From positions 4,258-68,257 of the forward strand of contig CADBNN010000020.1 of assembly GCA_902796075.1 (NCBI GenBank): a stretch of DNA of 64,000 bases. Direction: 5' to 3'. Shown in pieces: positions 9,693 to 59,521 of this stretch (position 1 is its first letter; each line of letters begins with the position of its first letter). The notes under the pieces are model-generated. The model was given only the letters and a program-made list of their open reading frames with translations, did not search any database and was not told the DNA's origin. The position numbers were made by a program, and so were the translations under genes. The DNA comes from Oscillospiraceae bacterium. GTDB lineage: Bacteria; Bacillota; Clostridia; Oscillospirales; Acutalibacteraceae.

Positions 9693-10487
9693 TTACGTCC
9701 GGTCGTGTTCCGTGCTGTGGCGCCATTGGGTGGGGGTCATGCCGAAGTGGACCTTGAACCGCCGCACAAAGTTGGAAACGTCGGTGAATCCGCTTTCTTC
9801 ACACACCGCCGCCACCGTGGCGGAGGAGGTGAGCAGCAGCTTTTTGGCGTAATCGAATCGCAGGGCGTCCAAATAGGTTTTGAAGTTTACTTTCATATCC
9901 CGCTTGAACACCGCCGAAGCGTAAGAGGGGGAAAGCCCCACGTAGGCGGCCGCCTGCGCCAACGATATAGGCTGGCGAAAATGGGTGAGCAGATAAAAGT
10001 GGATCTTGGCCACCGCGTCGTCCTGCGAAGGGGCCAGATCGTCCGGCCAGAAGTGCAGCATTTTGCGCAGCAGGCATTCCATCAGCACCGTGCAATAGGC
10101 CAGATCGCCCTGATGTTGAATGATCTCTTCCAGCAGGGGCACCAAAAAGCGCTGGGTGTGCGCGTCGGCCGCCGCCGCTTTGGGAGCGGTCAGGCGCAAA
10201 AAGGGCTCCAAACAATGCTGGGGCACCAAATCGGCCGAAAACATAATGTTCACCAAGTGCACGTTGTTGCCCCGCACGCTGTGGCAGTCCAGGGGCGTCA
10301 TAAAAAACAGCATTCCCTTGTGCATGGGCATCACGGTGCCGTTCAGCGTGCAGTTGCCTTCGCCGCCGGTAATGTATTCTATTTCATAAAAATCGTGGAA
10401 ATGATTCGCTGTAAAGCCGTCAAACCGTTTTTGCCGCGCCACAATACTGCGCTGGTCAAATAAATCTTCTTTTTGCAGTCGTTCCAT
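9693..10487 (-). CDS. AraC family transcriptional regulator (cupin sensor plus C-terminal HTH)
   Basis: The C-terminal ...LTSSATVAAVCEESGFTDVSNFVRRFKVHFGMTPTQWR is an AraC HTH. I placed the start at MERLQ (10487) because AAGGAGG lies 8 nt upstream. The ORF extends to 10508 without an RBS. Confidence 0.85.
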   Translation of the reverse strand: MERLQKEDLFDQRSIVARQKRFDGFTANHFHDFYEIEYITGGEGNCTLNGTVMPMHKGMLFFMTPLDCHSVRGNNVHLVNIMFSADLVPQHCLEPFLRLTAPKAAAADAHTQRFLVPLLEEIIQHQGDLAYCTVLMECLLRKMLHFWPDDLAPSQDDAVAKIHFYLLTHFRQPISLAQAAAYVGLSPSYASAVFKRDMKVNFKTYLDALRFDYAKKLLLTSSATVAAVCEESGFTDVSNFVRRFKVHFGMTPTQWRHSTEHDRT

Positions 10488-13129: not shown

Positions 13130-14986
13130 ATGAAAGCAAGTATAACACGCATCCTCAGTTTGCTGCTTGTGGCCATGATGGCGATCACCATTTTTGCCGG
13201 CTGCACGCAGCAACCGAAGGACACCACGCCTACGGACGTGACGCCCACCGAAACCACCCCCGAATCGGTACCCGAACCCGTTATTGTGGGGCCGGAAGAC
13301 GATGATCCCTATACCATCAGCAAAGACGCCGATGGCAAGGACGTTGTGATCCTTACGCCCAATGACGACGGCACCGCCACCATGAACGTGGCCGAAGGCA
13401 CCACCCTGGAACAGTTCTTCACGCTGGTAACGGCGAAGGAAGGCTACACCCAGAAGGTGACCGACGCGGAAGGCAACGAAGTGACCGATCCCGCCGCCCT
13501 CATCGCCGACGGCATGACCTATGCCGTGTATGCCGACGGGGAGACCGACCCGGCCAAACAGTTTGCCATTCATGTGGAAAGCCAGGAAAAGATCGAAGAA
13601 ACCGTAAGTCAGGCGGCTGTGGTTTCCCAGCAGATCGCCAAAGCCGAAAGCCAACGCGCTAACCAAACCAGCAGCAAGGGCAAAGGCAACGGCAAAACCG
13701 ACAGCAGCAAAAACACCAAATCTTCCACGCCTTCTAAGGACCCCGGCAGCCCCGACACGCCTTCTTCCAAAGACGAAACGCCCATGGAAGATATTATCCT
13801 GTCCACTATCTGGGATCATAACTATCAGGCTTCCGATAATACCGGCAACGCCTGGCAGTCCACCTTCAAAAACATGGAAAAGAAATATCACATCCGCACC
13901 ATCATCGATCCCCATCTGGATGCCGCTACCGCTACCGACCTGATCGTGAAAGACGTTATGGCCGGCAAAGCCCGCGTGGATATTTACGAAGTTTCGCTGG
14001 TGCGCTGCCGCGATATCGCCAAGCGCAAAGCGGCCGCCAACATTTACAAATCCAAAACTATCAACAAGGATGTTTTCAACACCAGCGCTACCAAGTCGGT
14101 CACCTTCAACGGCAAGGTGTACGGCGTGGCGTTCGCTTCCAATGCCCTTAACCCGGTAGGCGTAATCTACAACAAGGACCTGATCAAAAAGTACGCGCCC
14201 GAGTATGACATTGCCAAACTGTATAAAGAGAAAAAGTGGGATTTCGACGCCATGCGCGCCGTGGCCAAGCTGTGCACCCGCGATACCAACGGCGACGGCA
14301 AAACCGATATTTACGGCGTGACCTCCAACACCAACCTGATCGGTATGGCCATCACCAACAACGCCGGCGCTACCGCCGATATGGTGAACGGCCGCGTGGT
14401 ACCGGTTATGTGCAGCGACGAAGGCATTCGCGCTCTTGAATGGTGCAAAGCCCTGTGGAAAGACGATAAGAGCTGGAAGTACTTCGGCGATATCACCGAC
14501 GCAGTGCCCTTCTTCGCTTCTGGCCAATGCGCCATGTTCGCTTCTTATCTGCAGTATTATCCCAACATCGCTTCTTTGGCCGACTTCGATTTCGGTTTCG
14601 TGCTCATGGCTATGGGCCCGGATAAATCGGATTACATCAACGCCGTGTACGACAGCAGTCTGTATATCGTGCCCAAAACCCGCGAAAACCGGCTGGACGT
14701 GATCGGCAACTGGCTCAACGGCGCGGCTACCATGTCCAGCAAGATCATTACCTTCAACGTGCAGAAGATGGCCCGCAACGGCTTTGACAAGACCTCTACC
14801 GACGCTTACAAATGGGTAGTTGCCCACATGACGCCCGAATTCTCTTCCGGCGTGTTCTCCGGCAAAATCGCTTCTCAGGTAGACGGTTCTGTTACCTCGC
14901 CCTCTAAATCGCCTTCCAAAGTTATGACCGCTATCAAAACGGCGGCGCAGGCGGAATGCGACGACTACTACGCGGATCTGTATTGA
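13130..14986 (+). CDS. Extracellular solute-binding protein (ABC-transporter SBP family 1 fold) lipoprotein with a long disordered linker. Orphan: no permease or ATPase adjacent.
   Basis: Signal peptide plus lipobox (IFAGC). A ~200-aa T/P/E/D/K/S-rich linker is followed by an SBP-like domain (...NTNLIGMAITNNAGATADMVNG...). RBS AAGAAGGAG. Confidence 0.7.
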   Translation: MKASITRILSLLLVAMMAITIFAGCTQQPKDTTPTDVTPTETTPESVPEPVIVGPEDDDPYTISKDADGKDVVILTPNDDGTATMNVAEGTTLEQFFTLVTAKEGYTQKVTDAEGNEVTDPAALIADGMTYAVYADGETDPAKQFAIHVESQEKIEETVSQAAVVSQQIAKAESQRANQTSSKGKGNGKTDSSKNTKSSTPSKDPGSPDTPSSKDETPMEDIILSTIWDHNYQASDNTGNAWQSTFKNMEKKYHIRTIIDPHLDAATATDLIVKDVMAGKARVDIYEVSLVRCRDIAKRKAAANIYKSKTINKDVFNTSATKSVTFNGKVYGVAFASNALNPVGVIYNKDLIKKYAPEYDIAKLYKEKKWDFDAMRAVAKLCTRDTNGDGKTDIYGVTSNTNLIGMAITNNAGATADMVNGRVVPVMCSDEGIRALEWCKALWKDDKSWKYFGDITDAVPFFASGQCAMFASYLQYYPNIASLADFDFGFVLMAMGPDKSDYINAVYDSSLYIVPKTRENRLDVIGNWLNGAATMSSKIITFNVQKMARNGFDKTSTDAYKWVVAHMTPEFSSGVFSGKIASQVDGSVTSPSKSPSKVMTAIKTAAQAECDDYYADLY

Positions 14987-15778: not shown

Positions 15779-15807
15779 TTGCCGTTATGTACCGATAGTG
15801 GTACAAT
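15779..15807 (+). promoter_or_regulatory. Promoter TTGCCG-17-TACAAT (with extended -10 TGGTACAAT) for the WYL regulator gene. It contains the perfect palindrome TGTACC-GATAGT-GGTACA (15788-15805) overlapping the spacer and -10: a putative autoregulatory operator.
   Basis: Read directly: -35 at 15779-15784, spacer 15785-15801, -10 at 15802-15807. The palindrome arms are exact reverse complements. Confidence 0.55.
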
Positions 15808-15833
15808 CAACAACACAGAACAGGAGGCGCACC

Positions 15834-16847
15834 ATGAAAAATCCCCAATCGAAAAAGGAAACGTTGAAAGGGCTGGAACCCAAAAAATTGGCGTTGCTGC
15901 GCATTTTGCAAATCATGCAGCAATACAGCGATCACGACCATCCGCTCAAGCAAGAGGATATTGCCCAATATCTTGAAAACGAATACGGTATCGTGATCGA
16001 GCGCAAAGCTATCAGCCGCAACATTTCTTTGCTGAAAGAAGCGGGATTTGAGATCGAATCCTGCCGTGCCGGCAGTTATTTGGACGAGCGCGATTTTACC
16101 GATGCGGAACTGCGCATCCTGATAGACGGCGTTTTATCCAGCAAGTATATCACCGCCAGCTATTCCAAAGCGCTGATCGATAAACTGTGCGCCCTGTCCA
16201 GCCGGTATTTTCGCTCTCACGTGCGGCATATCCATTCGGTAGGGGATTGGGACAAAAGCGAAAACCCGGCTTTGTTTTACAATATCGAGATCGTGGACGA
16301 AGCCATCGAGCAAAAAAAGCAGATCCGGTTTGATTATAACCAGTACGGCGCAGACAAAAAACTGCACAGAACCACCACCCACCGGGTTTCGCCTTACCAG
16401 CTGATCTTGCACAACCAGCGCTATTATTTAATGTGCAAAAGCGAGCGTTGGAAGAACATGGGTTTTTACCGTATGGACCGCATTACCAACATGGCGATCA
16501 CCGAACAAAAACTCACGCCGGTTTCGTCTGTGGAAGGGTACAAAAAAGGCATCAATTATAAGGAACTGGCAACGGCGCTTCCCTATATGTATACCGACAA
16601 GCCGGTGCGGGTGGATTTTATTGCCGCGGCGCAGATCGTAGACCAGATCATCGACTGGTTCGGCAAGGATATCCGCGTGCAGCCGTTGGACGAAAACCAA
16701 CTGAAGGTTACTGTGAAAGCCAGCCCCATGGCCATGGAACACTGGGCGCTGCAGTATGCGGGCTATGTTACCGTAACGGCGCCGGCGGACCTGGTGAACA
16801 ATATCAAAGCCCGCCTGCGGGCCGCGGCGGAACAGTATGACACATAA
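15834..16847 (+). CDS. WYL-domain transcriptional regulator (wHTH-WYL-WCX architecture; BrxR/CapW/PafBC-like)
   Basis: 337 aa. The N-terminal wHTH (LRILQIMQQYSDHDHPLKQEDIAQYL), a central WYL-like region (RFDYNQYGADKKLHRTTTHRVSPYQLILHNQRYYLMCK) and a C-terminal WCX-like region. Start assigned to the ATG at 15834 after a CAGGAGG RBS. Markedly lower GC than flanking DNA. Confidence 0.8.
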   Translation: MKNPQSKKETLKGLEPKKLALLRILQIMQQYSDHDHPLKQEDIAQYLENEYGIVIERKAISRNISLLKEAGFEIESCRAGSYLDERDFTDAELRILIDGVLSSKYITASYSKALIDKLCALSSRYFRSHVRHIHSVGDWDKSENPALFYNIEIVDEAIEQKKQIRFDYNQYGADKKLHRTTTHRVSPYQLILHNQRYYLMCKSERWKNMGFYRMDRITNMAITEQKLTPVSSVEGYKKGINYKELATALPYMYTDKPVRVDFIAAAQIVDQIIDWFGKDIRVQPLDENQLKVTVKASPMAMEHWALQYAGYVTVTAPADLVNNIKARLRAAAEQYDT

Positions 16848-16933
16848 CAATGGCTTTTAACGACGAAAAATTCACCGCCATCCGTTGCAAACAACAAGAA
16901 TCATATCGCTTTTTCGCATTTGCCTAGGAAAAT

Positions 16934-16960
16934 GGACCGTGAAGCTCACGGTCCTTTTTC
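16934..16960 (+). terminator. Rho-independent terminator downstream of the WYL regulator gene
   Basis: GGACCGTGA-AGC-TCACGGTCC is a perfect 9-bp stem, followed by TTTTTCATTT. Confidence 0.65.
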
Positions 16961-17039
16961 ATTTGGCGCGTTATGCCCCGGTTTTGGTACATCGACCGTG
17001 CGATACTCTTTTTATAACGGCCGGAAAGGGGACTGTTGT

Positions 17040-19961
17040 ATGGATCTCATAGGCAACTTGAACGAAAAGCAGCAAGAAGCCGTGCTGGCAACCGAAGGGT
17101 TTGTGCGGGTCATTGCAGGCGCAGGCAGCGGCAAAACCAAGCTTTTGGTCAGTCGGTACGCGTATCTTGTGAAAGAATACGGCATCGATCCGGCCAACAT
17201 TTTGTGCGTTACCTTTACCAACAAAGCGGCCGGTGAAATGAAGCGCCGCATCAGCGCTATCATCGGCGATGAATACGATACGGCGCTGATCTGCACCTAC
17301 CACGGCTTTTGCGCCAGACTGCTGCGGGACGACGGCGAAAAACTGTTTTTATCCAAAAATTTTCAGATCATAGACGCGGTGCAGCAAAAAACCATACTCA
17401 GCGAAATTTACCAAAGGCGGGAATTAAAGCTTGACTACGCCAGCTTTGAAAAAATGCTCAAACAAATAGGAGAATACAAAGCAGCGGCATACCATGCATA
17501 CGTCCCCTGCATGATCAGCCCGGAACAAAAGCAGATCATGGCCGCCGTCGCTTCGCCGGACGACGAGATCGTGGAAGAATATATGCAACGGCAAAAAGCG
17601 GTGAACGCCCTCGATTTTCACGATTTGCTGAGCTTTGCCCTGTATTTGCTGGAAACCGACGAAACCGTGCGCACACGCTGGCAGAACAAACTGAACTATA
17701 TTCAGGTAGACGAATTTCAAGACAGCGCCGCGCGCGAAATGCGGCTGATCGATATTTTGTGCGGCCGTTACCGCAATCTTTTGATCGTGGGCGACCCGGA
17801 TCAGAACATTTACGAATGGCGGGGTTCGGACGTGAAGCTGCTGGTGGATTTTGATAAAACCCACACCCCTACCAAAACGATCATTCTCAATCGCAATTAT
17901 CGCAGCACACCGCAAATACTGGATTGCGCCAACAGCCTGATCGGCCACAACCAACTGCGCTTGAAAAAAGACCTTTTTACCAAGCGCTCGGCGGGCACCA
18001 ACGTTACCCATTTTCATTTTAAAAGCGACGATAAAGAAACCGCCAAAATAGCGGAACTGATCAAAAGCATTGTGCGCAGAAACGAATATAGGTATTCCGA
18101 CATAGCGATTTTGTACCGGTCCGGCTTTTTGTCGCGCCTGGTGGAAAACCGGCTTGCGGAACAAAACATACCCTATGAAATATACGGCGGCGTTAAGTTT
18201 TTTCAGCGCATGGAAGTTTTGGATATGATCGCATACCTGCGGGTGATCGCCTTTGGCGACGATGTTTCGTTCAAGCGCATTATCAACAAACCCCGCAGGC
18301 GTTTCGGCAAAGCCAAACTGCTTGCGCTGGAGCAGCTGCAGGAATCCCTGCAGGCCGCCGGCACACAGACGGTCCCTTTGTTTAACGTTTTGGCGGCTCA
18401 CCTTGAAAACGAGCCGTTTAAAAACAGCGACGCCGCCGGATTCGTGCGGATGATACAGGCTGTGCGAGGCGAAGCGGCCCAATGCAGCATCGGCGAGATC
18501 GTGAACCGCGTGGCGGCCGAATCGGGCTACGAAGCGTACATGCGGGGGTTGGGCGATGAAGAACGCTACAACAATTTAATGGAGTTTAAGCGGGTGGCGG
18601 ATGAGTTTGAGCGAAATTTCGGCGAAGAGATCCCGCTGACGCAGTTTTTGCAGCACCTGGCCCTGCAAAGCGGGGACGACGACGAAACCGAAAGCGACGC
18701 CGTAAAACTCATGACCATACACGCCGCCAAAGGGCTGGAATTCCCCGTGGTGTTCATTATCGGCTTTTCCGAAGGCATTTTTCCGTCTGCCAAAACCATA
18801 GAAGAACGCAAACTGCTGGGCTTGGAGGAAGAACGGCGATTGTGTTACGTTGCCATAACCAGAGCGAAAGAACAGCTGTATTTGATGGATTCCGAAGGGC
18901 TTTCCCAAAACGGCATAAAAAAACTGCCGTCCCGCTTTTTGCGAGAGATCGGGCCGGACCGTTACGACAGGATCGGCGTTATTTCCGACGGGCTCGACCG
19001 GGAAAGCAGAGAATACGCCGCCCGGCTGGACGCAGGATTTGAAACAAAAGCAAGGCGCCTGTATCGGGCAGGCGACGTAGTAACCCACCACGCCTTCGGC
19101 AAAGGGCGGGTGGTTCGTTACGATCCCAAACGCAACAGCCTGACCGTTGCTTTTGAAAAAATAGGGCAGGAGCGTTCGCTTAACGCGGATTATTTCACCC
19201 GGCCGCATACCCTGCCGGCCGTTGCTGCCCCTGCGCCGGAAACGTATCAAACCGAAATCAGCGAAACAGATTTTGAACAAGCAGAAGGCGCCCCGGCGAC
19301 GCCCCGGCTGACGGCCGATTGGATGGAAGATGAAGCGAAGAGTTTACCGTATGATGGGCGTGAGGCGAGGGTGCAAGCCGAAAGCTTTGTGATTCCCGAC
19401 CCGGTGGCGGTGCACCGGGAAGCAGCCGCTCCCGACGAAATCATCACACCTGCGCCTGAACCCGATTATGTTGACGCGCAGGAAGAAGTGAAACGCAAAC
19501 TGGCCAACACGCCCAATTTGTGGAAGCGCGACGACGCACCCCACGACGGCTGGCACTGCGCCGGCGTCAGCGATCTGGGCGCCCCTGTGGGGGTGTGCGA
19601 AATGTGTGGCTGCCAGGTCATCCGGTATGTGCATCACATGGTCCATCCCGCCTTTCACCCGCTTAACGTGGGCTGCGTTTGCGCCGGCAAAATGGAAGGC
19701 AACGTGGAACAGGCGATAAAACGTGAAAACGATTTTAAAAACAAAGAAAATCGCCGCCGGAACTTTTTGAAACGTACGTGGAAAACCTCCCGCAACGGCA
19801 ATCATTACGTCAAAATCAAACAGCACGTGGTCGTGCTGTATCGGCAAAAGGGGGGCTGGCAGTATTCGCTGGACTATGTGTTTTGCAACACGCTTTTTCC
19901 TTCGCGCGACCAGGCGATGAACGCGGCTTTTGAAGCGCTGGATCATGTGATAAAGGCGTAA
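17040..19961 (+). CDS. UvrD/PcrA/Rep-family SF1 DNA helicase with a ~250-aa C-terminal extension containing a Cys/His-rich putative zinc-binding domain
   Basis: Start at ATG 17040 (MDLIGNLNEKQQEAV). Walker A GAGSGKTK; helicase motifs (TFTNKAAGEM, DEFQD, GDPDQNIYEWRG, YRS); a Tudor-like region (GKGRVVRYD...LTVAFE). The C-terminus has HCAG..VCEMCGC..GCVCAG. Confidence 0.85.
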   Translation: MDLIGNLNEKQQEAVLATEGFVRVIAGAGSGKTKLLVSRYAYLVKEYGIDPANILCVTFTNKAAGEMKRRISAIIGDEYDTALICTYHGFCARLLRDDGEKLFLSKNFQIIDAVQQKTILSEIYQRRELKLDYASFEKMLKQIGEYKAAAYHAYVPCMISPEQKQIMAAVASPDDEIVEEYMQRQKAVNALDFHDLLSFALYLLETDETVRTRWQNKLNYIQVDEFQDSAAREMRLIDILCGRYRNLLIVGDPDQNIYEWRGSDVKLLVDFDKTHTPTKTIILNRNYRSTPQILDCANSLIGHNQLRLKKDLFTKRSAGTNVTHFHFKSDDKETAKIAELIKSIVRRNEYRYSDIAILYRSGFLSRLVENRLAEQNIPYEIYGGVKFFQRMEVLDMIAYLRVIAFGDDVSFKRIINKPRRRFGKAKLLALEQLQESLQAAGTQTVPLFNVLAAHLENEPFKNSDAAGFVRMIQAVRGEAAQCSIGEIVNRVAAESGYEAYMRGLGDEERYNNLMEFKRVADEFERNFGEEIPLTQFLQHLALQSGDDDETESDAVKLMTIHAAKGLEFPVVFIIGFSEGIFPSAKTIEERKLLGLEEERRLCYVAITRAKEQLYLMDSEGLSQNGIKKLPSRFLREIGPDRYDRIGVISDGLDRESREYAARLDAGFETKARRLYRAGDVVTHHAFGKGRVVRYDPKRNSLTVAFEKIGQERSLNADYFTRPHTLPAVAAPAPETYQTEISETDFEQAEGAPATPRLTADWMEDEAKSLPYDGREARVQAESFVIPDPVAVHREAAAPDEIITPAPEPDYVDAQEEVKRKLANTPNLWKRDDAPHDGWHCAGVSDLGAPVGVCEMCGCQVIRYVHHMVHPAFHPLNVGCVCAGKMEGNVEQAIKRENDFKNKENRRRNFLKRTWKTSRNGNHYVKIKQHVVVLYRQKGGWQYSLDYVFCNTLFPSRDQAMNAAFEALDHVIKA

Positions 19962-20044
19962 AAATGGCCCTATCCTGCAGTGCTTATCACCGAAAAAGCA
20001 AGGCGCCGCGCCCTATCATACAAAACCGCTGCACACGGCGCAAA

Positions 20045-20078
20045 TGCACCGAAAAGGGTGCATAACAAATGGTAGAAT
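20045..20078 (+). promoter_or_regulatory. Extended -10 promoter (TGgTAGAAT, 20070-20078) for the AAA-protease gene. The perfect palindrome TGCACC-GAAAAG-GGTGCA (20045-20062) occupies the -35 region. It is related to the palindrome in the WYL gene promoter.
   Basis: Read directly from the sequence. An AAAGGAGG RBS at 20087-20094 precedes the ATG at 20103. Confidence 0.5.
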
Positions 20079-20102
20079 AAGCACGAAAAGGAGGTAATAC
20101 TC

Positions 20103-21407
20103 ATGAATGATTTTGAAAAGATCCTCGGCTATGAAGCGATCAAACAAGAACTGATCCAGATCAGCGACGTTCTTGCCAATAGCGAAGCGTATCAAAAGCT
20201 GGGCGTTGAATCTCCGCACGGGCTGTTGCTGTACGGATCGCCCGGCGTGGGTAAAACGCTTATGTCATACGCGGTGATCGCCGCCAGCGGCCGAAAGTCC
20301 TTTATGTGCCGCAAAGATAAACCAAACGGCGATTTTGTAAAGGCGATCAAAGAAACGTTTGCGGCGGCAAAAGCAGCGGCGCCGTCTATCGTGTTTCTTG
20401 ACGACATGGAAAAATTTGCCAACGGCGATGAACGCCATCCGCATGCGGAAGAATACGTTACGGTGCAGTCGTGCATTGACGACTGCAAAGGCCAAGAAGT
20501 GTTTGTGCTCGCCACGGCCAACAAACTGCAGTCACTGCCGAGGTCGCTCCTTCGCGCCGGCCGTTTTGACCGGATGATCAAGGTGCATAACCCCCGCGGG
20601 GAAGACGCCGTGAAAATCATTGACCATTATATCAAAAAGAAGAAATGCATGGCAGATATGGACGCGACCGTTATTGCGCGGATGATGGACGGGCGCTCGT
20701 GTGCGGCGCTGGAAACGGTGATAAACGAAGCGGGGCTGTATGCCGGCTTTGAACGCTCCAACGTGATCACCATGGATCATTTTATGAAAGCGTGTTTGCA
20801 TACCGTTTACGATATTCCCAGCGCGGTGCTGAACGGCCCTGTGCCGAAAACCGACCTGACAAACGGCAACGACCAGCGGGTGCGCATCGTTTACCACGAA
20901 GCCGGCCATGCCACCGTGGCGGAAGTGCTGAATCCCGGAAGCGTCGCGCTCGTTACTGCGTATAACGATGCCGGACATTCCGGCGGATTTACTTCTTACT
21001 GTTGCGACCATGAGCGCAGCACGACGCAAGACATGTTTCGGCAAATATGCGCTTCGCTGGGCGGCATGGCGGCGCTGGATCAGCAATACGGCATGGCAGA
21101 CGCCGGAGTAGGGCAAGACCTGGATCATGCGTTTTCATTGGTCAGCGGCCTTGTGGGAGACGCCTGCATCCGCGGATTCGGTTTTTACGTCAGCGAATGC
21201 GGCGATTCGCAAAGCCGCAAATCCAGGCGAGAGCAGGCGGTCGCCGTTGAAATGGAACGTTGGTATCGAAAAACGAAGGAGATCTTGTCTGCGAACCGTG
21301 ATCTGTTTGAAGCTATTGCGGCTGAACTGTCGCAAAAAGGGGTTCTCACCACGGCGGATATCGACCGGATCAAGCAGCGTTGCCGCATTACGCCGGTCGC
21401 GATCTGA
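20103..21407 (+). CDS. Soluble (no TM) FtsH-like protein: AAA+ ATPase domain fused to an M41-type HEXXH zinc metalloprotease domain
   Basis: 434 aa. Walker A GSPGVGKT; a Walker B-like IVFLDDME (DD rather than DE); sensor-1 TAN; Arg finger RAGRFDR (FtsH has RPGRFDR); HEAGHA zinc motif (FtsH has HEAGHA). No hydrophobic N-terminal segments, and the FtsH aromatic pore loop is absent. Confidence 0.8.
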   Translation: MNDFEKILGYEAIKQELIQISDVLANSEAYQKLGVESPHGLLLYGSPGVGKTLMSYAVIAASGRKSFMCRKDKPNGDFVKAIKETFAAAKAAAPSIVFLDDMEKFANGDERHPHAEEYVTVQSCIDDCKGQEVFVLATANKLQSLPRSLLRAGRFDRMIKVHNPRGEDAVKIIDHYIKKKKCMADMDATVIARMMDGRSCAALETVINEAGLYAGFERSNVITMDHFMKACLHTVYDIPSAVLNGPVPKTDLTNGNDQRVRIVYHEAGHATVAEVLNPGSVALVTAYNDAGHSGGFTSYCCDHERSTTQDMFRQICASLGGMAALDQQYGMADAGVGQDLDHAFSLVSGLVGDACIRGFGFYVSECGDSQSRKSRREQAVAVEMERWYRKTKEILSANRDLFEAIAAELSQKGVLTTADIDRIKQRCRITPVAI

Positions 21408-21417
21408 ATCCGCGCCC

Positions 21418-22122
21418 ATGTATATCAAGCGGCTGGAGATCGATCCTTTTGAAGAATGCGGGCCTATTGGCATATCGTTTGCCGAAGACGTTACGGTGAT
21501 CGACCACAATGTGGGTCAAACGGTCGTCGGCGCAATCAAAATGTTGCTGCTGTATTCTTCGCAGTACGGTGTCGACTTGCCCTTTTCGGCGGGGAAACCG
21601 GCCAAACTGTTTGCCGAAGTGGTGGCCGGTGACGCGACATACCACGTGCGGTCTTGCGGCCTTGCCGGCGGTTTGACGGTGCAGCGGCTTGCAAAGGACG
21701 GCACGATCACACGGGCCGAAGAAGCGTATTGCGCCCTGATGCGGCGGTGCGCGGAGGAAAACAGGATCTCGGTCGTTGCCGGCGTGCATAACGGCTCGGA
21801 TTACGGCCTTGAGCGATACCGCCGGGAGGATCGGTATTACGGTGCGGGCGTTTTTGCCCGTGTAACAGACGGGATGTGCTTAACGCACTCTTTCCGCCGG
21901 TGTGTGAGGCAGCACATGCGCCAAAATGCGGCCGAAGCTCCCAACGCGGATACGCCGGCAAGACCGTGGATCGATACCGTAAGATTTTGGAATGCGTTCG
22001 GCAAAATGCGGGATCTTCATTATGAGGGAAAACCGCTTGTTGTGGACCAAACGCTGCTTTCGTTTGTTTCTGCGCCGGTCTTGTTCCGCATGACCGGCAG
22101 ACAGGTGCTGATCGTAACGTAA
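21418..22122 (+). CDS. Hypothetical protein, co-transcribed with the AAA-protease (10-nt gap). The N-terminus resembles a RecF/SMC-type ABC-ATPase N-terminal strand but has a degenerate P-loop.
   Basis: 234 aa. MYIKRLEIDPFEE...ISFAEDVTVIDHNVGQTVVGAIKMLL aligns in pattern with the MxIxxLxLxNF...IxGxNGxGKS N-termini, but the GKS/T is missing. Weak RBS. Confidence 0.5.
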   Translation: MYIKRLEIDPFEECGPIGISFAEDVTVIDHNVGQTVVGAIKMLLLYSSQYGVDLPFSAGKPAKLFAEVVAGDATYHVRSCGLAGGLTVQRLAKDGTITRAEEAYCALMRRCAEENRISVVAGVHNGSDYGLERYRREDRYYGAGVFARVTDGMCLTHSFRRCVRQHMRQNAAEAPNADTPARPWIDTVRFWNAFGKMRDLHYEGKPLVVDQTLLSFVSAPVLFRMTGRQVLIVT

Positions 22123-22138
22123 TAAGTTTATTTTCAAA

Positions 22139-22178
22139 GCAACCGCCGAAACGATGGCGCCATCGTTTCGGCGGTTGC
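22139..22178. terminator. Bidirectional intrinsic terminator between the convergent hypothetical gene (+) and spoVAC (-)
   Basis: GCAACCGCCGAAACGATGG..CCATCGTTTCGGCGGTTGC is a 19-nt perfect inverted repeat, flanked by T-rich (plus strand) and A-rich runs. Confidence 0.6.
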
Positions 22179-22189
22179 TTGCGCTTTAT

Positions 22190-35186: not shown

Positions 35187-35324
35187 CGCGTTTACTTGAT
35201 TATATCACACGGTCACGTAACCGTCAAGTATTTTTTTCGAATTTTTTCGGTTTTTTTATTGACTTATGTCGGCTTTCCATTATATTATAAAGAAGCAAGA
35301 CAAGCACCCCGAAGGAGGTACCTT

Positions 35325-37175
35325 ATGGCTTACGAATATACCGTCGACCGCTCGGCGGACGAATCCCGCAAGATCGTGACCGACGGGCTGCTGCCCGACA
35401 CGATCTATTGGGCGGACGGTTCGTTGCTGCGGCGGGATCCGATTTTTGAAAAGGACGCCACCCGGTTTGTGGTGAGTTTTCAGGGCCTGCTCAACCGGGA
35501 ATACGGCCAAAGCCACACCAGCCTGCTGTATTTAGACGTGACCCAATCGGACGATTTTTGGTTTGATTACACCCGCCGGCCGGGCAAAAGTTTTCACGGC
35601 ATGGCGGTGCGCAAAATTGCCGATTTGACCGACTTTTTTGCCCTGTTTGCCCCGCAGTTGGCCGATTTCGGCCTGATCGAATGGGATCCGGCCGTGCCTG
35701 CCACCGCCAACGTGGCCGCCACCATTTGCGGACTGGACGGCATGCTGCCCGTGCGGCATGACCCGGCGCCCGACAGCTTTGAAACGCTTGCGCTGGGCCG
35801 GGGGTTAACGGTCAAGCAAAGCCTGGTTGGCATGTTCGGCCCCGGCGGCACCGCGTATGAACATGGCTTCACTTCCTGCGGCAGCGCCAAAAACGACGCC
35901 TATCGCTGGGCGTATGATAAATATTTTGCCCGCTGTTCCTCTCGCTACATCGCTTATATTCTGGACGGCGCCGGTTGTGTGCCCGGCACCCCCTTTGAAG
36001 CGGCGGCTCATTCGGCGGGGCTCAACTGCCTGTATAATCACGATTACTACCTGGCCCGCCGGTGCTTCTTTTTTGATTTGACCTGTATCGATATCGAAAA
36101 GCCCTGCGACGATCCCGATCAGCCGCTGGGCACCGACCTTGCCACCCTGAAAATGATCATGAAAGGCCGGTATGACCGGGCAAACGGCGCTTTCGGGCAG
36201 ATCCTGGGCTTCCCGCCCTGGTGGGTGAAATACACCACCTCCCGCGGCATGGGCAGTTTGTTCCCCACCACGGTGGAATGGATCTACGTGGCGCTGGTGA
36301 CCGCCTATAACCTGGCCAAGGAAGCGGACGCCGCCCACCCCTGCACCATGAGCAACGCGTCGTTCTACAGCCGCTATACCAGCAGCTTCAAACAGTATAA
36401 AAACAACCGGCCCACCCAAAAGAAACGGTTTGACCCAAAAGTGAAGTATTTTACTTTCTACGGGGGCGATTACGATTCGGCCGCCTGGCTCAAACAGCAC
36501 GTGGCCAACTTTTGGGTGAATGACGACGCCCGGGGCAAGATCCCCATCAACTGGTCTTTCAACCCCAATTTGTCGGAACGGGCGCCCATGGTGTTTGATT
36601 TTATTCATGAAGAAATGACCCCCAACGACTTCTTTTCCGCCGGGGACAGCGGCGCCGGTTACGTGATCCCCGCCGCGCTGTCGTCCGATTCCTCTTTGCG
36701 TGAAGTGCCGGACGGCTGTAACGCCTGGGCGGAATACAGCAAGTGGTTTTATGAAAAATTCGATCTGGACGTGACCGGATTCATCATCAACGGCCACTAC
36801 CCCATGACCCGGCAGATCATGGAAATGTTCGCTTCCTTTTCGCCGGTTGGCAATTTCCACAACTGCTCCAATACCACCATGGCCCTGTGCAACGGGGTGC
36901 CGTTTGTGTATTTGCACAACGGCGTGAGCGGCCGCAAGGAATCGGCCGAGGGCAGCGCCAAAGCCATGCTCAATCACTTCCGCACCCGCATGGCACCCTA
37001 TAACTTCGCCGGCTTCCGCAATGTGTGCGACGCTCCTTCCGACACCCTGCGGCTGGTGGAAACTTTCCTGGCCTACGCCAAGGAGCAAGACCCCGAAACC
37101 CGGTATGAGTATGTTGATACTTACACGTTCTTCGATCTGGTGATGCAATCAGGCCAGTGCACCGAAGAACTGTGA
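35325..37175 (+). CDS. Member 1 of a 5-gene tandem paralog family (uncharacterised conserved domain). No signal peptide or dockerin, so predicted cytoplasmic.
   Basis: Start at ATG 35325 after GAAGGAGG. Shared motifs with the paralogs: PATANVAATICGLDG, GSAKNDAYRWA..YF.RCSS.Y.AY.LDGA, NHDYYLARRCFFFDL, RANGAFGQ..GFPPWW.KYT, GDYDS.AW.K, FNPNLS.R.P..FD, GDSGAGYVIPA, FD.D.TGFIING. Confidence 0.7.
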   Translation: MAYEYTVDRSADESRKIVTDGLLPDTIYWADGSLLRRDPIFEKDATRFVVSFQGLLNREYGQSHTSLLYLDVTQSDDFWFDYTRRPGKSFHGMAVRKIADLTDFFALFAPQLADFGLIEWDPAVPATANVAATICGLDGMLPVRHDPAPDSFETLALGRGLTVKQSLVGMFGPGGTAYEHGFTSCGSAKNDAYRWAYDKYFARCSSRYIAYILDGAGCVPGTPFEAAAHSAGLNCLYNHDYYLARRCFFFDLTCIDIEKPCDDPDQPLGTDLATLKMIMKGRYDRANGAFGQILGFPPWWVKYTTSRGMGSLFPTTVEWIYVALVTAYNLAKEADAAHPCTMSNASFYSRYTSSFKQYKNNRPTQKKRFDPKVKYFTFYGGDYDSAAWLKQHVANFWVNDDARGKIPINWSFNPNLSERAPMVFDFIHEEMTPNDFFSAGDSGAGYVIPAALSSDSSLREVPDGCNAWAEYSKWFYEKFDLDVTGFIINGHYPMTRQIMEMFASFSPVGNFHNCSNTTMALCNGVPFVYLHNGVSGRKESAEGSAKAMLNHFRTRMAPYNFAGFRNVCDAPSDTLRLVETFLAYAKEQDPETRYEYVDTYTFFDLVMQSGQCTEEL

Positions 37176-37212
37176 GGATGAAAGTTTTGTATTCTTTATG
37201 GAGGACACTGTT

Positions 37213-39468
37213 ATGAGACGAGCCATTGCTATGCTTTTATTTGTGCTGCTGGTTTTGGGCGCGGGCGTTGTGCCGGCCGCCGCGGCGGAAAGCGACGATC
37301 CCTACGGCGTGACGCGCGCGTTATACGGCGACGTGAACCTGGACCGGAAAATCGACGCGGCCGACGCGCTGGCAATTTTGAAAGCCGCCGTAGCCAAAAC
37401 GGTATTGAACGAACTGCAGGCGGTCGTTGCCAACGTGAACGCGGACAACAGCATAAACGCCGTGGACGCCTTGCTGGTGCTGCAGTTTGCGGTGCATAAA
37501 CTCACCGAACTGCCGGCCGGCGTGTTATATGAGATCAAACCGCAATCCAACGACCCCATCGTCCGTTTTGATAAAACCAATTCGGTCAACGGCGCTTACG
37601 TGCCCGACCTTACGGCCGATACCTCTTTCCACGCGGATTTGAGCAGTTTGCCGGCCCACACGCTGTACCGCATCGGCTTAAACGCCATTTCGGGCGACAA
37701 GGACAAAGCCCGCCTGCTTTACAGCCTGCAGGGGCTTGTCAACCGGGATTTCGGCATGGACGACGACCACACCGTGCTGATGTACGTGGTGGGAGACGGC
37801 TCCGACGCCGACTGGCTCAAGGTCATTACCGAAGAAGGCACCATCGCCGCCGAACTGACGCCGGTGACCATTACCAAGTGGGACGATTTTATGGCCACCT
37901 TCGGCGACGTGATCCGCGCCTGCGGGATCATCGCCTGGGACGGTAACGTGCCCGCCACCGCTAACGTGGCCGCCACCATTTGCGGGTTAGACGGATATTT
38001 GCCCGTGCTGTACGGCTGTCCGCTGCACAGCGAACTGGTGGCCGCCAACGTGCCGGTGAAGCAGTCGCTTTCGGGCGTTTTCCGCAACGGTCGCAAGGGC
38101 CAGGCCATCAACGGCACCAGCCTCACCAGCACCGGCAGCGCCAAAAACGACGCCTATCTGTGGGCGCTGGAAAAATACTTCCCCCGGTGTTCTTCCACCT
38201 ATTTGGCTTACACGCTGGACGGCGCCATTTGCATTAAGGACTACGGCGATTTGTATGCCGATAACCCCATTGCGGTGGCCGGCGGCAACAACTGCCTGAC
38301 CAATATGGACTACTTTATTGCCCGGCGCTGCTTTGTTTACGATCTGGCCGTGTATAAGGGCGACGCCGCCTGCGACGACCCGGCCCAGCAAAACGGCCAG
38401 GCCAGCGTGGGGGAAGACAACCGCACCATGCTCAAGATCTTTGCCGCCCGGTTCAAACGGGCCAACGGCGCCTTTGGCCAACTGTTGGGCTTCCCGCCCT
38501 GGTGGGCCAAATACACCGCCTTCCACGATATGGGCAGCAAGGGCGAAGTGTGGAACGAATGGCTGTTTGCCGAATATATCACCTGCTACAACATGGCCAA
38601 AGAAGCCGACGCCCAGGCGCCCGCCAGCATGACCAACGGTTCGGTATATTACAAATACGTGCCCCACACCAAACAATATACCAACAACCACAACAAGCAG
38701 GACCTGGCCTTTAACAGCAACGTGTTCTATTACACGTTCTACGTGGGTGACTACGATTCTTCCGCCTGGATGAAACAGCACGTGCACACCATGTGGCTGA
38801 AAAACGGCGGCGACCGCCGGCGGGGCGCTTTGCCGCTCATGTGGTCCTTTAACCCCAACCTGTCTTACCGGGTGCCCATGATTTTTGATTACGTGTATGA
38901 ACACCGCACCGACAACGACTATTTCGCGGCCGGTGACGGCGGCGCCGGTTACGTGATGCCTTCGGCGCTGGTGCAGGGCACCGTTATGCCCAACATGGGC
39001 GAAGCCCGCCCGGTGGAAAACGGCGAAGCCGGCAATCTGTGGGCCGCCTATTCCAAGCCTTTCTACGACCGGTTCGATCTGGATATCACCGGCTTTATCA
39101 TCAACAGCGGCATTTCCGCAATGCCGGCCAACGTGGCGTCGTTTATGAACAAGATCTCCCCCGTGGGCAGTTTTATGAACAGCAGCGGCACCCGGCTGGG
39201 TCTGTATAACGGCACGCCTTACATCCATTGCTACAACCAGATCACCACCGGTCAAAGCGCCGCCATGTATTCTTACGCCACCAACACCATGCGCGGTTAC
39301 AACTTCGGCGCCTATCGCACCATTTGCCAGACGCCCACCCAAATGTATACCATTGTGAACGACTTTAACGCCTATGCCGCCGGCAAGGGCCTTACCACCC
39401 AATTCCTGGATCCTTACACCTATTTTGCCCTGGTGCGCAAATCGGGGCAGGGGACCCAGATACGCTGA
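37213..39468 (+). CDS. Paralog 2: secreted protein with an N-terminal signal peptide and type-I dockerin-like module, plus the conserved ~550-aa domain
   Basis: Start at ATG 37213 (GGAGGA RBS). Dockerin DVNLDRKIDAADALAILK / NVNADNSINAVDALLVLQFAV. Conserved motifs as in paralog 1. Confidence 0.75.
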   Translation: MRRAIAMLLFVLLVLGAGVVPAAAAESDDPYGVTRALYGDVNLDRKIDAADALAILKAAVAKTVLNELQAVVANVNADNSINAVDALLVLQFAVHKLTELPAGVLYEIKPQSNDPIVRFDKTNSVNGAYVPDLTADTSFHADLSSLPAHTLYRIGLNAISGDKDKARLLYSLQGLVNRDFGMDDDHTVLMYVVGDGSDADWLKVITEEGTIAAELTPVTITKWDDFMATFGDVIRACGIIAWDGNVPATANVAATICGLDGYLPVLYGCPLHSELVAANVPVKQSLSGVFRNGRKGQAINGTSLTSTGSAKNDAYLWALEKYFPRCSSTYLAYTLDGAICIKDYGDLYADNPIAVAGGNNCLTNMDYFIARRCFVYDLAVYKGDAACDDPAQQNGQASVGEDNRTMLKIFAARFKRANGAFGQLLGFPPWWAKYTAFHDMGSKGEVWNEWLFAEYITCYNMAKEADAQAPASMTNGSVYYKYVPHTKQYTNNHNKQDLAFNSNVFYYTFYVGDYDSSAWMKQHVHTMWLKNGGDRRRGALPLMWSFNPNLSYRVPMIFDYVYEHRTDNDYFAAGDGGAGYVMPSALVQGTVMPNMGEARPVENGEAGNLWAAYSKPFYDRFDLDITGFIINSGISAMPANVASFMNKISPVGSFMNSSGTRLGLYNGTPYIHCYNQITTGQSAAMYSYATNTMRGYNFGAYRTICQTPTQMYTIVNDFNAYAAGKGLTTQFLDPYTYFALVRKSGQGTQIR

Positions 39469-39486
39469 CAGTTTTTTATACGACCG

Positions 39487-39520
39487 CGACCGCTCTGCAC
39501 CGGCAGGGCGGTCGTTTTTT
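39487..39520 (+). terminator. Intrinsic terminator after paralog 2
   Basis: CGACCGC...GCGGTCG stem with an inner CTGC/GCAG stem, followed by TTTTTT. Confidence 0.5.
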
Positions 39521-39617
39521 GCCGCCGGGCGCTTTTTGTGAATGTTTGCTATTTGCCGCCCAAAAAAACTGTGAAAACTGTCCAAAATAAAAAGCGCAAT
39601 TTTGTGGCAAATATGTA

Positions 39618-39646
39618 TTGTTTAAACAGCGGGTTTGTTGTATAAT
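39618..39646 (+). promoter_or_regulatory. Putative promoter TTGTTT-17-TATAAT for paralog 3
   Basis: -35 at 39618-39623, -10 TATAAT at 39641-39646, about 90 nt upstream of ATG 39734. Confidence 0.45.
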
Positions 39647-39733
39647 AATAATGGCCGCTTGGGGCTTCCCGCGGCACAATGTTTTCAGCTCGTCCGGCCG
39701 GTTCCGGCGGGTCGCGCTATAGGAGTGAAGAGG

Positions 39734-42013: not shown

Positions 42014-42097
42014 TCAATAATCACAGTTTTGGCAAAAGGTAAGCCGGCAATACCGCTTACCTTTTGCCCGGTTTTTCAGCAAAGGATGTGACCCATT

Positions 42098-44512: not shown

Positions 44513-44540
44513 ACGCCGAAACGGAAAAGAGGAAGATGTT

Positions 44541-59419: not shown

Positions 59420-59521
59420 TGAAAACATCGTTAGGCTGCGGCACAACGGATCGTTTCGATCGCTTTATTGCCCGTACTAAGGCGCCGCTGACGCATGGCG
59501 CTTCTAAAAGAGGTGTGCAAC

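Follow-up and report, generated by a model that had tools for sequence, protein, structure and literature searches.

Regulation of defence islands by WYL proteins is established. Moreover, DriD is an ssDNA-sensing activator of the damage response in Caulobacter, and PafBC of mycobacteria and other actinobacteria is a WYL activator of a LexA-independent damage regulon with a genomic link to an AAA+-dependent protease system, the Pup-proteasome. Besides ssDNA, DriD binds an inverted repeat of 20 bp (PMC9186387). Its sites overlap the −35 position, with constant spacing to the −10 element, in promoters that have no −35 (PMC13004042). CapW also senses ssDNA (PMC11662680). Here we describe a segment of ~6.4 kb with four genes, within a 64,000-nt stretch of DNA (the window) from a Clostridia genome of gut or rumen, that on balance is probably a small, horizontally acquired regulon controlled by a wHTH-WYL-WCX regulator of the DriD/PafBC type.

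Genes and transcription units of the segment

A first-pass annotation of this DNA had proposed four co-oriented genes, and gene calls and Pfam bear out both the genes and their domains. All four lie on the + strand, in the order WYL regulator, UvrD-like helicase, FtsH-like protease and protein 4 (Table 1). A single operon of four genes was rejected; there are three transcription units, namely WYL, UvrD, and FtsH-like plus protein 4, the last of which starts 10 nt past the FtsH-like stop codon. The right-hand terminator of the first-pass annotation is present as a perfect palindrome of 22+22 nt, whereas the one placed to the left, after a flavodoxin-like gene, was not recovered: our scan found nothing resembling an intrinsic terminator after this FMN-reductase gene. 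The clear terminator of the scan stands 3′ of the WYL gene.

Table 1. Features of the segment, in window coordinates
Feature	Position	Strand	Detail	Source or score
WYL promoter	15779..15807	+	−35 TTGCCG, 17-nt spacer, TG-extended −10 TACAAT	consensus scan
Operator box 1	15787..15806		ATGTACCGATAGTGGTACAA	PWM 15.1 and 18.8 bits (two strands)
wHTH-WYL-WCX transcription regulator	15834..16847	+	337 aa	Pfam
Intrinsic terminator past WYL gene	16934..16954	+	9-bp stem, then T run	
Operator box 2	16973..16992		ATGCCCCGGTTTTGGTACAT	PWM 12.7 and 16.6 bits (two strands)
UvrD/PcrA-like SF1A helicase paralogue	17040..19961	+	973 aa	Pfam
C-terminal Cys4 domain of helicase	19512..19958	+	~145 aa, CEMCG...IRYVH...GCVCAGKMEG	
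Operator box 3	20044..20063		ATGCACCGAAAAGGGTGCAT	PWM 19.3 and 15.0 bits (two strands)
Soluble FtsH-like AAA+/M41 zinc metalloprotease	20103..21407	+	434 aa	Pfam, NCBIfam
Protein 4	21418..22122	+	234 aa, minimal Rad50/SMC-head-like ABC fold without P-loop	
Bidirectional terminator	22137..22180		perfect 44-nt palindrome, shared with convergent spoVAC gene	

At a GC content of 0.532, compared with 0.581 in the window as a whole and 0.584/0.614 in flanks of equal size, the segment has the lowest GC of any 6.4-kb stretch in the window. Moreover, GC3 is 0.64–0.66 in its genes and 0.71–0.80 in the neighbouring ones. The dip that had been noted by eye is thus there, but its depth, put at 10–12 points, is 5–8 points when computed. 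This composition suggests horizontal acquisition of the segment.

By domain architecture the regulator is a wHTH-WYL-WCX protein (Pfam WYL, 1.9e-11; WCX, 2.8e-7; HTH_11/HTH_12, about 2e-4, the HTH_11 match being below the cut-off and that to HTH_12 just at it). When the profile of its family was compared with solved structures, DriD was recovered first (3.5e-7 to 1.5e-6) and then PafC (1.4e-5). Up to E = 1 no other solved regulator beyond DriD and PafC/PafBC was found, and neither BrxR nor CapW structures matched. Within the family a YYL motif and the R-x-D-R downstream of it do not vary, and both align with the WYL region of DriD.

The helicase has UvrD-helicase and UvrD_C domains in Pfam and a weak match to the PcrA tudor domain. 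Its core (residues 1–640) is followed by a PcrA-type tudor-like segment (678–712), a Pro/Glu/Ala-rich linker and the Cys4 domain. Scores fall short of both the PcrA equivalog (NCBIfam TIGR01073, 587.9 against a cut-off of 911.2 bits) and the UvrD equivalog (uvrD model, 480.9 against 1144 bits), and on sequence grounds we class the protein as an SF1A paralogue that carries an additional domain at its C-terminus. The Zn-finger or Cys-rich tail reported earlier is confirmed as a domain of its own that lacks annotation, with no Pfam or PHROG family found for it. It occurs in 1715 representative clusters, either stand-alone (about 160 aa) or fused to a UvrD-like helicase at one terminus, N or C.

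The FtsH-like protein combines a single AAA module with AAA_lid_3 and a Peptidase_M41 domain bearing HEXXH (Pfam). It covers positions 160–597 of the 598-position FtsH model and therefore has no membrane anchor, in keeping with the transmembrane-less protease that had been proposed. The ATPase motifs, placed by alignment to the VAT AAA+ ATPase, are altered: Walker B is DD, not DE, and pore loop 1 is KPNG, not aromatic-hydrophobic-Gly. HEAGH is intact, and all three motifs (DD, KPNG and HEAGH) are invariant among 27 aligned homologues. A true FtsH was rejected, given a score of 180 against a cut-off of 600 bits and the missing anchor, Walker B DE and aromatic pore loop.

Protein 4 drew no match in Pfam, and a sequence search gave none to Pfam ABC families or PDB chains. 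It has the head-domain fold of ABC/SMC/Rad50 proteins and lacks their Walker A, signature motif and coiled-coil insertion; no coiled coil was found in it at all. The degenerate ABC-ATPase-like protein of the first-pass annotation can thus be restated as a Rad50/SMC-head-like protein without Walker A, a motif present in no member of the family. An LSxxE motif is seen in the longer homologues alone; the window protein has a deletion at that place. The structural neighbours of the family include PtuA, LmuB, AriA, JetC and retron ATPases.

The operator box in the window and in other genomes

The segment has three promoters, and each carries one copy of a 20-bp palindrome, ATG-YACC-N6-GGTRC-AT. A PWM trained solely on other genomes returned exactly three window sites with at least 12 bits on both strands; these are the three segment promoters, and none was found beyond them in the 64 kb. 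Shuffling the window 100 times gave a mean of 0.04 such sites. Box 1 lies within the spacer of the WYL promoter and overlaps its −10, a geometry from which autorepression of the WYL gene would be expected. In the UvrD and FtsH-like promoters, which have no −35 hexamer, boxes 2 and 3 stand where that element would be, each exactly 9 nt upstream of the −10 (GATACT, 17002–17007, and TAGAAT, 20073–20078, respectively). Because one conserved operator is common to all, the three transcription units form a small regulon, and the WYL protein appears to control its neighbours, as the first-pass annotation had implied. From this co-occurrence, and by analogy, we infer that the box is bound by a dimer of the WYL protein.

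FtsH-like genes in other genomes have the same box and spacing upstream. A box of at least 12 bits was found 5′ of ~58% of 79 FtsH-like genes (species-level loci) against 1.4% of random 130-nt windows (the first PWM was scored on its own training sequences, of which the window scan and the 0.82 Mb set below are independent), and ~40% of these genes had no recognisable box. It lies at −62 to −68 relative to the ATG, and its distance to the −10 is exactly 9 nt in 41/48 distinct sites. Having the box and having a WYL gene at 10 kb or less were uncorrelated (25/17 against 21/16). In an independent 0.82 Mb set there were 15 composite sites, 13 with a downstream ORF, and 11 of these 13 precede UvrD-tail (6), WYL (4) or AAA_lid_6 ATPase (1) genes.

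Box and spacing are kept in many other Clostridia 5′ of FtsH-like, UvrD-tail, WYL and several repair genes, and divergent WYL/FtsH-like pairs have one box for both genes. Elsewhere the box precedes genes for a DnaE-like polymerase, LigA, DUF2779/Cas4-like and PDDEXK nucleases, NADAR, a metallophosphatase and SNF2, while RtcB, Tpt1, UDG and a DnaQ-like exonuclease are neighbours at other loci. The box also overlaps a −10-like hexamer at the WYL orthologues of L016, L019, L029, L048 and L053, and several box promoters carry TG-extended −10 elements. A repressor placed over the −35 region in the style of CapW/BrxR would fit the same promoter sequences.

The four genes do not make up the fixed, syntenic module that the first-pass annotation had supposed. 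Of 80 FtsH-like loci, 45 have a WYL gene at 10 kb or less and only 1 has the UvrD type with tail; likewise, the FtsH-like gene was found at 1 of 80 UvrD-tail loci. Protein 4 family genes adjoin the protease gene in 17/63 loci, and WYL, protease and tailed UvrD are joined in three loci only, the window included. To judge from these comparisons of sequence, what is conserved as a unit is a regulator plus operator, with targets that vary.

Proposed function and alternative explanations

A damage-response regulon is favoured because, among solved structures, DriD is nearest to the regulator, the promoters have a DriD-like layout and the genes co-regulated elsewhere are mostly for nucleic-acid repair enzymes; we read the box-linked genes as a nucleic-acid-damage regulon under WYL control. 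In the mechanism that we propose, the box would be held by a WYL dimer, and ssDNA from damage or foreign DNA would bind the WYL domain and switch the regulator on, as in DriD, PafBC and CapW. The activated regulator would then recruit RNA polymerase to the −35-less promoters, and would limit its own synthesis. Two products would be induced: the PcrA-like helicase, carrying the tudor-like segment plus the additional Cys4 domain, and a soluble FtsH-type metalloprotease that would form hexamers. The ATPase of this protease would resemble a slow switch rather than a threading motor. More speculatively, the dead Rad50-head-like partner may act as its adaptor or targeting subunit, for example to DNA-bound proteins.

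In its most far-reaching form, this proposal would make the segment part of an undescribed, SOS-independent, ssDNA-triggered WYL activator regulon in Clostridia, with a Cys4 PcrA-like helicase and a new kind of protease, in which a dead Rad50/SMC-head-like subunit directs a switch-like soluble FtsH-type ring to DNA or DNA-bound proteins. We regard that whole as unlikely. If it were true, the targets of the protease could be DNA–protein crosslinks, trapped topoisomerases or stalled complexes.

Alternatively, the segment may be a new anti-phage or anti-plasmid island in which a BrxR/CapW-like repressor silences a toxic pair until infection or DNA damage, the effectors being the dead ABC-head protein, as sensor or scaffold, and the FtsH-like protease, with the helicase as a GajB-like partner. 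We hold this to be possible, if on the improbable side, because of the GmrSD neighbours (homologues in 8/80 loci) and of some mobile-element contexts. Some copies lie on mobilisable elements, one of them beside GmrSD, and this linkage points towards conflict systems. The low-GC island, WYL control of such islands and the sensing of ssDNA by CapW, the structural neighbours of protein 4, and the Nmad2/3, Fic and PDDEXK genes nearby are all consistent with defence, as is the patchy distribution of the FtsH-like gene, Eggerthellaceae and Bacilli included. The gene was not found on viral contigs, which fits a host-side function. However, PADLOC matched the combination to none of its systems, and the first-pass annotation had likewise recognised no named one; IetA matches are limited to the AAA module, and GajB matches reflect generic UvrD homology, weaker than that to PcrA. 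Moreover, the solved relatives of the regulator are damage-response activators, so rigid a spacing of 9 nt from the −10 is what an activator in contact with RNA polymerase typically shows, repair enzymes are the main co-regulated genes, and the window copy lies amid housekeeping genes, with no integrase, mobility gene or flanking direct repeats found.

The genes could also be cargo of mobile elements, serving establishment, repair or counter-defence, with an ssDNA-sensing WYL protein turning them on at single-stranded entry. At L085/L086 and L004 genes for the FtsH-like protein, protein 4, an AAA_lid_6 ATPase and an SNF2 helicase adjoin those for a relaxase, MobC/NikA and serine/tyrosine recombinases, and NADAR, RtcB, Tpt1 and LigA belong to the usual repertoire of repair or counter-attack; patchy spread and low GC would suit cargo too. 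Yet mobility markers were seen in only 3/80 loci (with queries of limited sensitivity), the window copy has none, and the order FMN reductase–WYL–UvrD recurs in other assemblies, so that we consider this quite improbable. Lastly, a chance cluster of unrelated housekeeping genes, for PcrA, FtsH, some regulator and one hypothetical protein, as the full-length similarity of the helicase to PcrA/UvrD and of the protease to the cytosolic part of FtsH might suggest, is highly improbable and is already contradicted by the shared operator, confined to the three promoters, and by WYL–FtsH-like linkage and box kept across species, besides the scores far under the equivalog cut-offs, the missing anchor and the altered ATPase motifs.

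Comparison with described systems

The damage-response regulon that we favour is of a kind known from other phyla, and its component proteins are uncharacterised. The protease shares with FtsH, YME1 and AFG3L2 the classical AAA module, AAA_lid_3 and M41 with HEXXH; unlike them, it has no transmembrane or periplasmic N-terminus, has DD in Walker B and KPNG in pore loop 1, and is paired with an ABC-head-like protein. At L001, L004, L007, L042 and L050 the FtsH-like gene stands beside MoxR, DUF2201/vWA and SNF2, as in MoxR-vWA ternary conflict systems. The FtsH component of those systems is described in passages of Kaur et al. 2020 (PMC7159879) as having two AAA domains and occurring in actinobacteria, deltaproteobacteria and planctomycetes, and these passages do not mention an M41 domain. 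The window protein has a single AAA module, and no MoxR or vWA was found among the scanned adjoining ORFs. For ietAS, the PADLOC IetA HMM covers the AAA part only (60.9 bits), NCBIfam IteA scores 52.8 against 510 bits, and none of the four proteins matched the IetS models in PADLOC.

Gabija also sets a UvrD-like helicase near an ABC-fold protein, and our helicase matches GajB HMMs. However, it is nearer to PcrA (587.9 against 359 bits), protein 4 has no GajA or other PADLOC match, no P-loop (Walker A) and no TOPRIM domain, and the two genes are neither adjacent nor co-conserved. BrxR and CapW, the WYL repressors of BREX and CBASS islands, have the wHTH-WYL-WCX architecture, palindromic operator and horizontally acquired neighbours of the window regulator, but BREX or CBASS genes are not present here, and strict box-to-−10 phasing at the targets suggests activation, repressor-like geometry being limited to the autoregulatory site.

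The PafBC element replaces normal −35 recognition, as in the window, and in its regulon, as among the box-linked genes, those for helicases, ligase, polymerase and nucleases are frequent; a genomic link to an AAA+-dependent protease is common to both regulators. PafBC is, however, a heterodimer or two-WYL fusion with an asymmetric element, whereas the window has one gene and a palindromic box, and the PafC profile match is weaker than that of DriD. DriD, the closest solved relative by profile, equals the regulator in size and domain order, although similarity is detectable over WYL-WCX alone (E about 1e-6). Both have a 20-bp inverted-repeat operator and a site at the regulator's own promoter, and in both the operator lies over the −35 position of promoters without a −35 element, at a fixed distance to the −10, as seen at boxes 2 and 3. 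The window regulator differs in phylum (Bacillota, class Clostridia) and in its operator (GTACC-N6-GGTAC), and ssDNA sensing and activation, which are properties of DriD, are predicted for it. Moreover, DriD acts on didA, bapE, recA, dnaG and recJ, whilst the predicted targets in the window are a UvrD paralogue and the soluble FtsH-like protease with its partner.

Gene content and boundaries of the segment

The segment at 15779-22180 carries four genes, and two further assemblies with this arrangement have the WYL and UvrD-like genes called from identical starts. The WYL, UvrD and FtsH-like M41 domains that the first-pass annotation had read from the sequence were recovered by Pfam. PADLOC gave only generic matches to the four proteins (WYL; GajB-type UvrD models; the AAA part of IetA), with none to protein 4, the fourth gene product. 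A clear intrinsic terminator lies after the WYL gene and therefore the four genes are three transcription units.

Positions of the features discussed, in the window unless a locus is named
Feature	Position	Strand	Description
WYL regulator	15834-16847	+	337 aa; Pfam HTH_11/HTH_12, WYL and WCX
UvrD-like helicase	17040-19961	+	973 aa; Pfam UvrD-helicase and UvrD_C, weak PcrA tudor match
Cys4 domain	19512-19958; P0241-P0390		last ~145 residues of the helicase; CEMCG...IRYVH...GCVCAGKMEG
FtsH-like protein	20103-21407	+	434 aa; Pfam AAA, AAA_lid_3 and Peptidase_M41
Protein 4	21418-22122	+	234 aa; starts 10 nt past the FtsH-like stop codon; no Pfam match
Operator, WYL promoter	15787-15806		at least 12 bits
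Operator, UvrD promoter	16973-16992		at least 12 bits
Operator, FtsH-like promoter	20044-20063		at least 12 bits
Intrinsic terminator	16934-16954		after the WYL gene; terminator scan
Bidirectional terminator	22137-22180		perfect 22+22 nt palindrome; common to protein 4 and convergent spoVAC
618-aa ORF	13130-14986	+	no Pfam match
GxGYxYP genes	35196-46742	+	five tandem paralogues, 659-804 aa
1318-aa protein	59495-63451	+	C-terminal type I dockerin, no other Pfam domain
UvrD-tail locus L165			WYL divergent from UvrD-tail, then DUF2779, then FtsH-like
Second WYL class, single bidirectional box (L013, L021, L025, L028, L036, L044, L049)	around 9900-10000

Of the two terminators proposed as boundaries, the right-hand one is present as a perfect palindrome, whilst a terminator scan of the window found no hairpin 3′ of the flavodoxin-like (FMN-reductase) gene on the left. 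The right-hand palindrome, 44 nt without a loop at the junction of protein 4 and spoVAC, is unusually long for an intrinsic terminator. A GC dip of 10-12 points had also been claimed; the deviation is real, this being the lowest-GC 6.4-kb stretch within the window, but its size is only 5-8 points (0.532, against 0.581 for the window and 0.584 and 0.614 for the flanks). GC3 is 0.64-0.66 in the segment versus 0.71-0.80 for neighbouring genes. Ordinary chromosomal genes (GH38 mannosidase, ROK kinase, FMN reductase, spoVAC, GFO/IDH/MocA oxidoreductases) make up the flanks, with no integrase among them. No direct repeats were found around the segment, which thus shows no sign of an att site. Scanning the window for Rfam families and tRNAs gave no hits.

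Elsewhere in the window, the tandem paralogues encode GxGYxYP-family putative glycoside hydrolases, four of the five with an N-terminal type I dockerin, and their paralogy is marked by the repeated internal sequence GCGCCAAAAACGACGCCT. Together with the 1318-aa dockerin protein, these tandem dockerin genes suggest a cellulosome-type organism. Another assembly has a gene call for the 618-aa ORF, which is overlapped by a 572-aa ORF on the opposite strand.

One operator at three promoters

A palindrome, ATG-YACC-N6-GGTRC-AT (the box), was spotted by reading the three intergenic regions alongside 80 upstream regions of FtsH-like homologues from GTDB species representatives (the best 80 of 213 loci). 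The window was scanned with a PWM built from other genomes only, requiring 12 bits or more on each strand. Exactly three sites were found, and these are the segment's three promoters (WYL, UvrD and FtsH-like); the mean over 100 shuffles was 0.04 such sites. At the UvrD promoter GATACT follows the box after 9 nt, and at the FtsH-like promoter a TG-extended TAGAAT does so at the same distance. Both lack a -35 hexamer because the A/T-rich centre of the box fills that position. The WYL promoter has a normal TTGCCG-17-TACAAT arrangement, with the box in the spacer and overlapping the -10. A single-strand match of 13.6 bits at 57295-57312 on the minus strand (GCACCGAAAACACGATAT) is not palindromic, has no -10 and is probably due to chance. 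A LexA (Cheo) box was rejected, the motif here being GTACC-N6-GGTAC and not the Cheo consensus GAAC-N4-GTTC.

In other genomes, 58% of 79 FtsH-like genes have a box scoring 12 bits or more in their upstream region; for random 130-nt windows drawn from these loci the figure is 1.4%, a contrast inflated by a PWM trained on those same upstream regions. The position of the box before FtsH-like genes is constant (-62 to -68 from the ATG), and 41 of 48 distinct sites have exactly 9 nt between box and -10. Within the best 80 of 213 FtsH-like loci, 47 box-bearing promoters precede FtsH-like genes, and other genes behind a box are AAA_lid_6, WYL, metallophosphatase, NADAR, DUF2779, DnaE-like, LigA, SNF2 and PDDEXK_4. 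No correlation was seen between having a box and having a WYL gene within 10 kb; the genomes concerned may encode the regulator at some other place. A second, independent collection of 80 metagenome loci (0.82 Mb), gathered via the UvrD tail domain, contains 15 composite sites (box, 9 nt and -10). Thirteen have a downstream ORF, and 11 of these precede UvrD-tail (6), WYL (4) or AAA_lid_6 ATPase (1) genes.

The autoregulatory layout of the window is repeated in WYL orthologues of at least 55% identity, with the box over a TACAAT- or TATAAT-like hexamer. Members of a second WYL class (36-46% identity) are divergent from the FtsH-like gene, and one box stands for both with 9 nt and a -10 on each side, a predicted bidirectional promoter of activator type. 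At several of these divergent loci the half-sites look closer to a direct GGGAC repeat than to an inverted one.

Gene linkage and three protein families

A GTDB scan gave 213 confirmed FtsH-like loci, and gene linkage was examined in the best 80. In 45 of these a WYL gene is found no more than 10 kb away, and in one (L034) the UvrD-tail type, the helicase with a C-terminal Cys4 domain, is present. Conversely, 80 UvrD-tail loci include WYL in 19 and an FtsH-like gene in one (L165), and the box precedes the helicase in at least 8 of the 56 with enough upstream sequence. All three genes occur together in three loci including the window, in differing orders. The four-gene cassette of the first-pass annotation therefore does not hold, its members rarely co-occurring. 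Protein 4 homologues are very divergent (12-46% identity) and occur in 17 of 63 FtsH-like loci with enough flank, always immediately adjacent on the same strand, downstream or upstream.

The commonest neighbours in the best 80 of 213 FtsH-like loci are a lambda-phosphatase-like metallophosphatase (17 loci), AAA_lid_6 ATPase (12) and DUF2779/Cas4-like nuclease (12), followed by DUF2201/vWA (10), MoxR (8), GmrSD/DUF262 (7-8), DnaE-like polymerase (7), ClpP, NADAR and RtcB (6 each) and DnaQ-like exonuclease (5); LigA, Tpt1, UDG and PDDEXK_4 are found at single loci. A recurrent trio of SNF2 (WH_1/DUF8437), MoxR-like AAA and DUF2201/vWA lies upstream of AAA_lid_6 and FtsH-like genes in L001, L004, L007, L042 and L050, two of which carry LigA and a SUFU-domain protein in between. 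Mobility markers were found in 3 of the 80 loci, an underestimate given a tblastn search with few queries. In L085/L086 (1-20500), a block of FtsH-like, protein 4, AAA_lid_6 and SNF2-DUF8437 genes with two GmrSD genes and PAD_porph adjoins relaxase and MobC; the flanking gene is a serine recombinase in one assembly, and in a second it is a tyrosine integrase.

The FtsH-like protein scores 180 bits against the 600-bit NCBIfam cut-off for FtsH, and canonical FtsH was rejected on its defining features. It aligns to model positions 160-597 only and therefore lacks a membrane anchor, in keeping with its earlier description as soluble. An exact-sequence look-up returned nothing. The family numbers 3,325 database proteins (E up to 0.001), and identity to the window protein is 55% or higher for each of the 120 best matches listed. 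The best 80 of 213 GTDB loci are mostly from Clostridia, with bins labelled Eggerthellaceae, Bacilli and Erysipelotrichaceae; no relatives were found among the IMG/VR viral contigs scanned. The 27 homologues compared all retain Walker A, the arginine fingers and HEAGH, whilst their Walker B is invariantly DD, not DE. Pore loop 1 is Lys-aromatic-hydrophobic-Gly in VAT, Cdc48 and FtsH, whereas this family has an invariant KPNG there. From these motifs we infer that the ATPase may be an ATP-binding or slowly hydrolysing switch on an intact protease chamber, not a processive unfoldase.

Protein 4 had been described as a degenerate ABC-ATPase-like protein, and this holds, since Walker A is absent from every family member and longer homologues show a resemblance to the ABC signature, Walker B and D/H-loop regions in their LSxxE, KPL-hydrophobic strand and RQ-hhhh. 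The LSxxE stretch is missing from the window protein through loss. Searching PDB with a family profile, or Pfam with loosened thresholds, gave only noise, and PHROGs gave nothing. The AlphaFold model of the window protein was poor (pLDDT 51) and therefore a better-sampled family member was modelled instead. The role of the protease pair is the weakest step in our reading; with its dead Rad50-head-like subunit, it may be targeted to DNA or DNA-bound proteins.

The helicase scores 587.9 bits against the NCBIfam PcrA equivalog cut-off of 911.2 and is also below that for UvrD; canonical PcrA was rejected on its defining features. Its supposed zinc-finger tail is indeed present as the Cys4 domain, to which no Pfam family and nothing in PHROGs corresponds. 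The domain comprises 1,715 representative clusters; it either stands alone (~160 aa) or is attached to one end, N- or C-terminal, of various UvrD-like helicases. These repeated, independent fusions argue for a putative helicase-linked function.

Classification and known WYL systems

A single operator is common to the three promoters, and both its phasing and its linkage to WYL are conserved. We class the segment as a WYL-controlled stress regulon whose contents are three unannotated protein families. By analogy with DriD, PafBC and CapW, ssDNA from damage or invading DNA would bind the WYL domain, and the WYL dimer would bind the box and assist the loading of RNA polymerase at the UvrD and FtsH-like promoters, which lack a -35. 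By sitting on the box over its own -10, the regulator would limit WYL synthesis. In the window genome this would yield the PcrA-like helicase and the protease pair, and elsewhere the same box may also drive polymerase, ligase, nuclease, de-ADP-ribosylation and RNA-repair genes. Taken together, such targets suggest that the regulon responds to nucleic-acid damage.

WYL repressors of defence systems are on record in the literature, and the segment could instead be a defence island with a BrxR/CapW-like WYL repressor. Its low GC, the GmrSD neighbours, copies on mobilisable elements and the defence-type structural neighbours of protein 4 are consistent with this, as are TG-extended -10 promoters, which could be blocked from the -35 region; nevertheless we consider it unlikely. 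A role in mobile-element establishment or counter-defence seems quite improbable. Gabija and ietAS, already excluded in the first-pass annotation, were likewise rejected on their defining features. So was MoxR-vWA-FtsH, whose published FtsH component (PMC7159879) differs in having two AAA domains. Chance adjacency of housekeeping genes is ruled out by the operator common to all three promoters.

For this regulator family, which is common in gut and rumen Clostridia, the analysis supplies a defined operator, a promoter layout with rigid phasing and a set of candidate targets. Moreover, the soluble FtsH-like protease with altered ATPase motifs, its P-loop-less Rad50-head-like partner and the Cys4 domain are families without annotation; should the protease pair turn out to act on DNA-bound proteins, or to be an effector of abortive infection, this would be a new mechanism in either field. 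Full-text literature searches found no WYL damage-response activator for Bacillota, and nothing on a Clostridia regulon, on a soluble FtsH-like protease linked to WYL or on the Cys4 domain. LexA-independent damage-response WYL activators are known from work on Actinobacteria (PafBC, SiwR), Caulobacter (DriD) and Moraxellaceae.

A phmmer search with the single WYL sequence found no solved relative among PDB sequences and therefore a profile of 11 family members was used. The family's YYL motif and the R-x-D-R after it show no variation. The top five matches of the profile (7U02, 7TZV, 9CU3, 9PFQ and 8TP8; E 3.5e-7 to 1.5e-6) are all C. crescentus DriD, followed by PafC (1.4e-5) and PafBC (2e-3), with no other regulator up to E = 1. 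DriD is a homodimeric wHTH-3HB-WYL-WCX activator; its WYL domain binds ssDNA, and its DNA site is a 20-bp inverted repeat (PMC9186387). On DriD promoters, which have no -35, the site covers that position and keeps a fixed distance to the -10 (PMC13004042), a geometry like that of the UvrD and FtsH-like promoters of the window.
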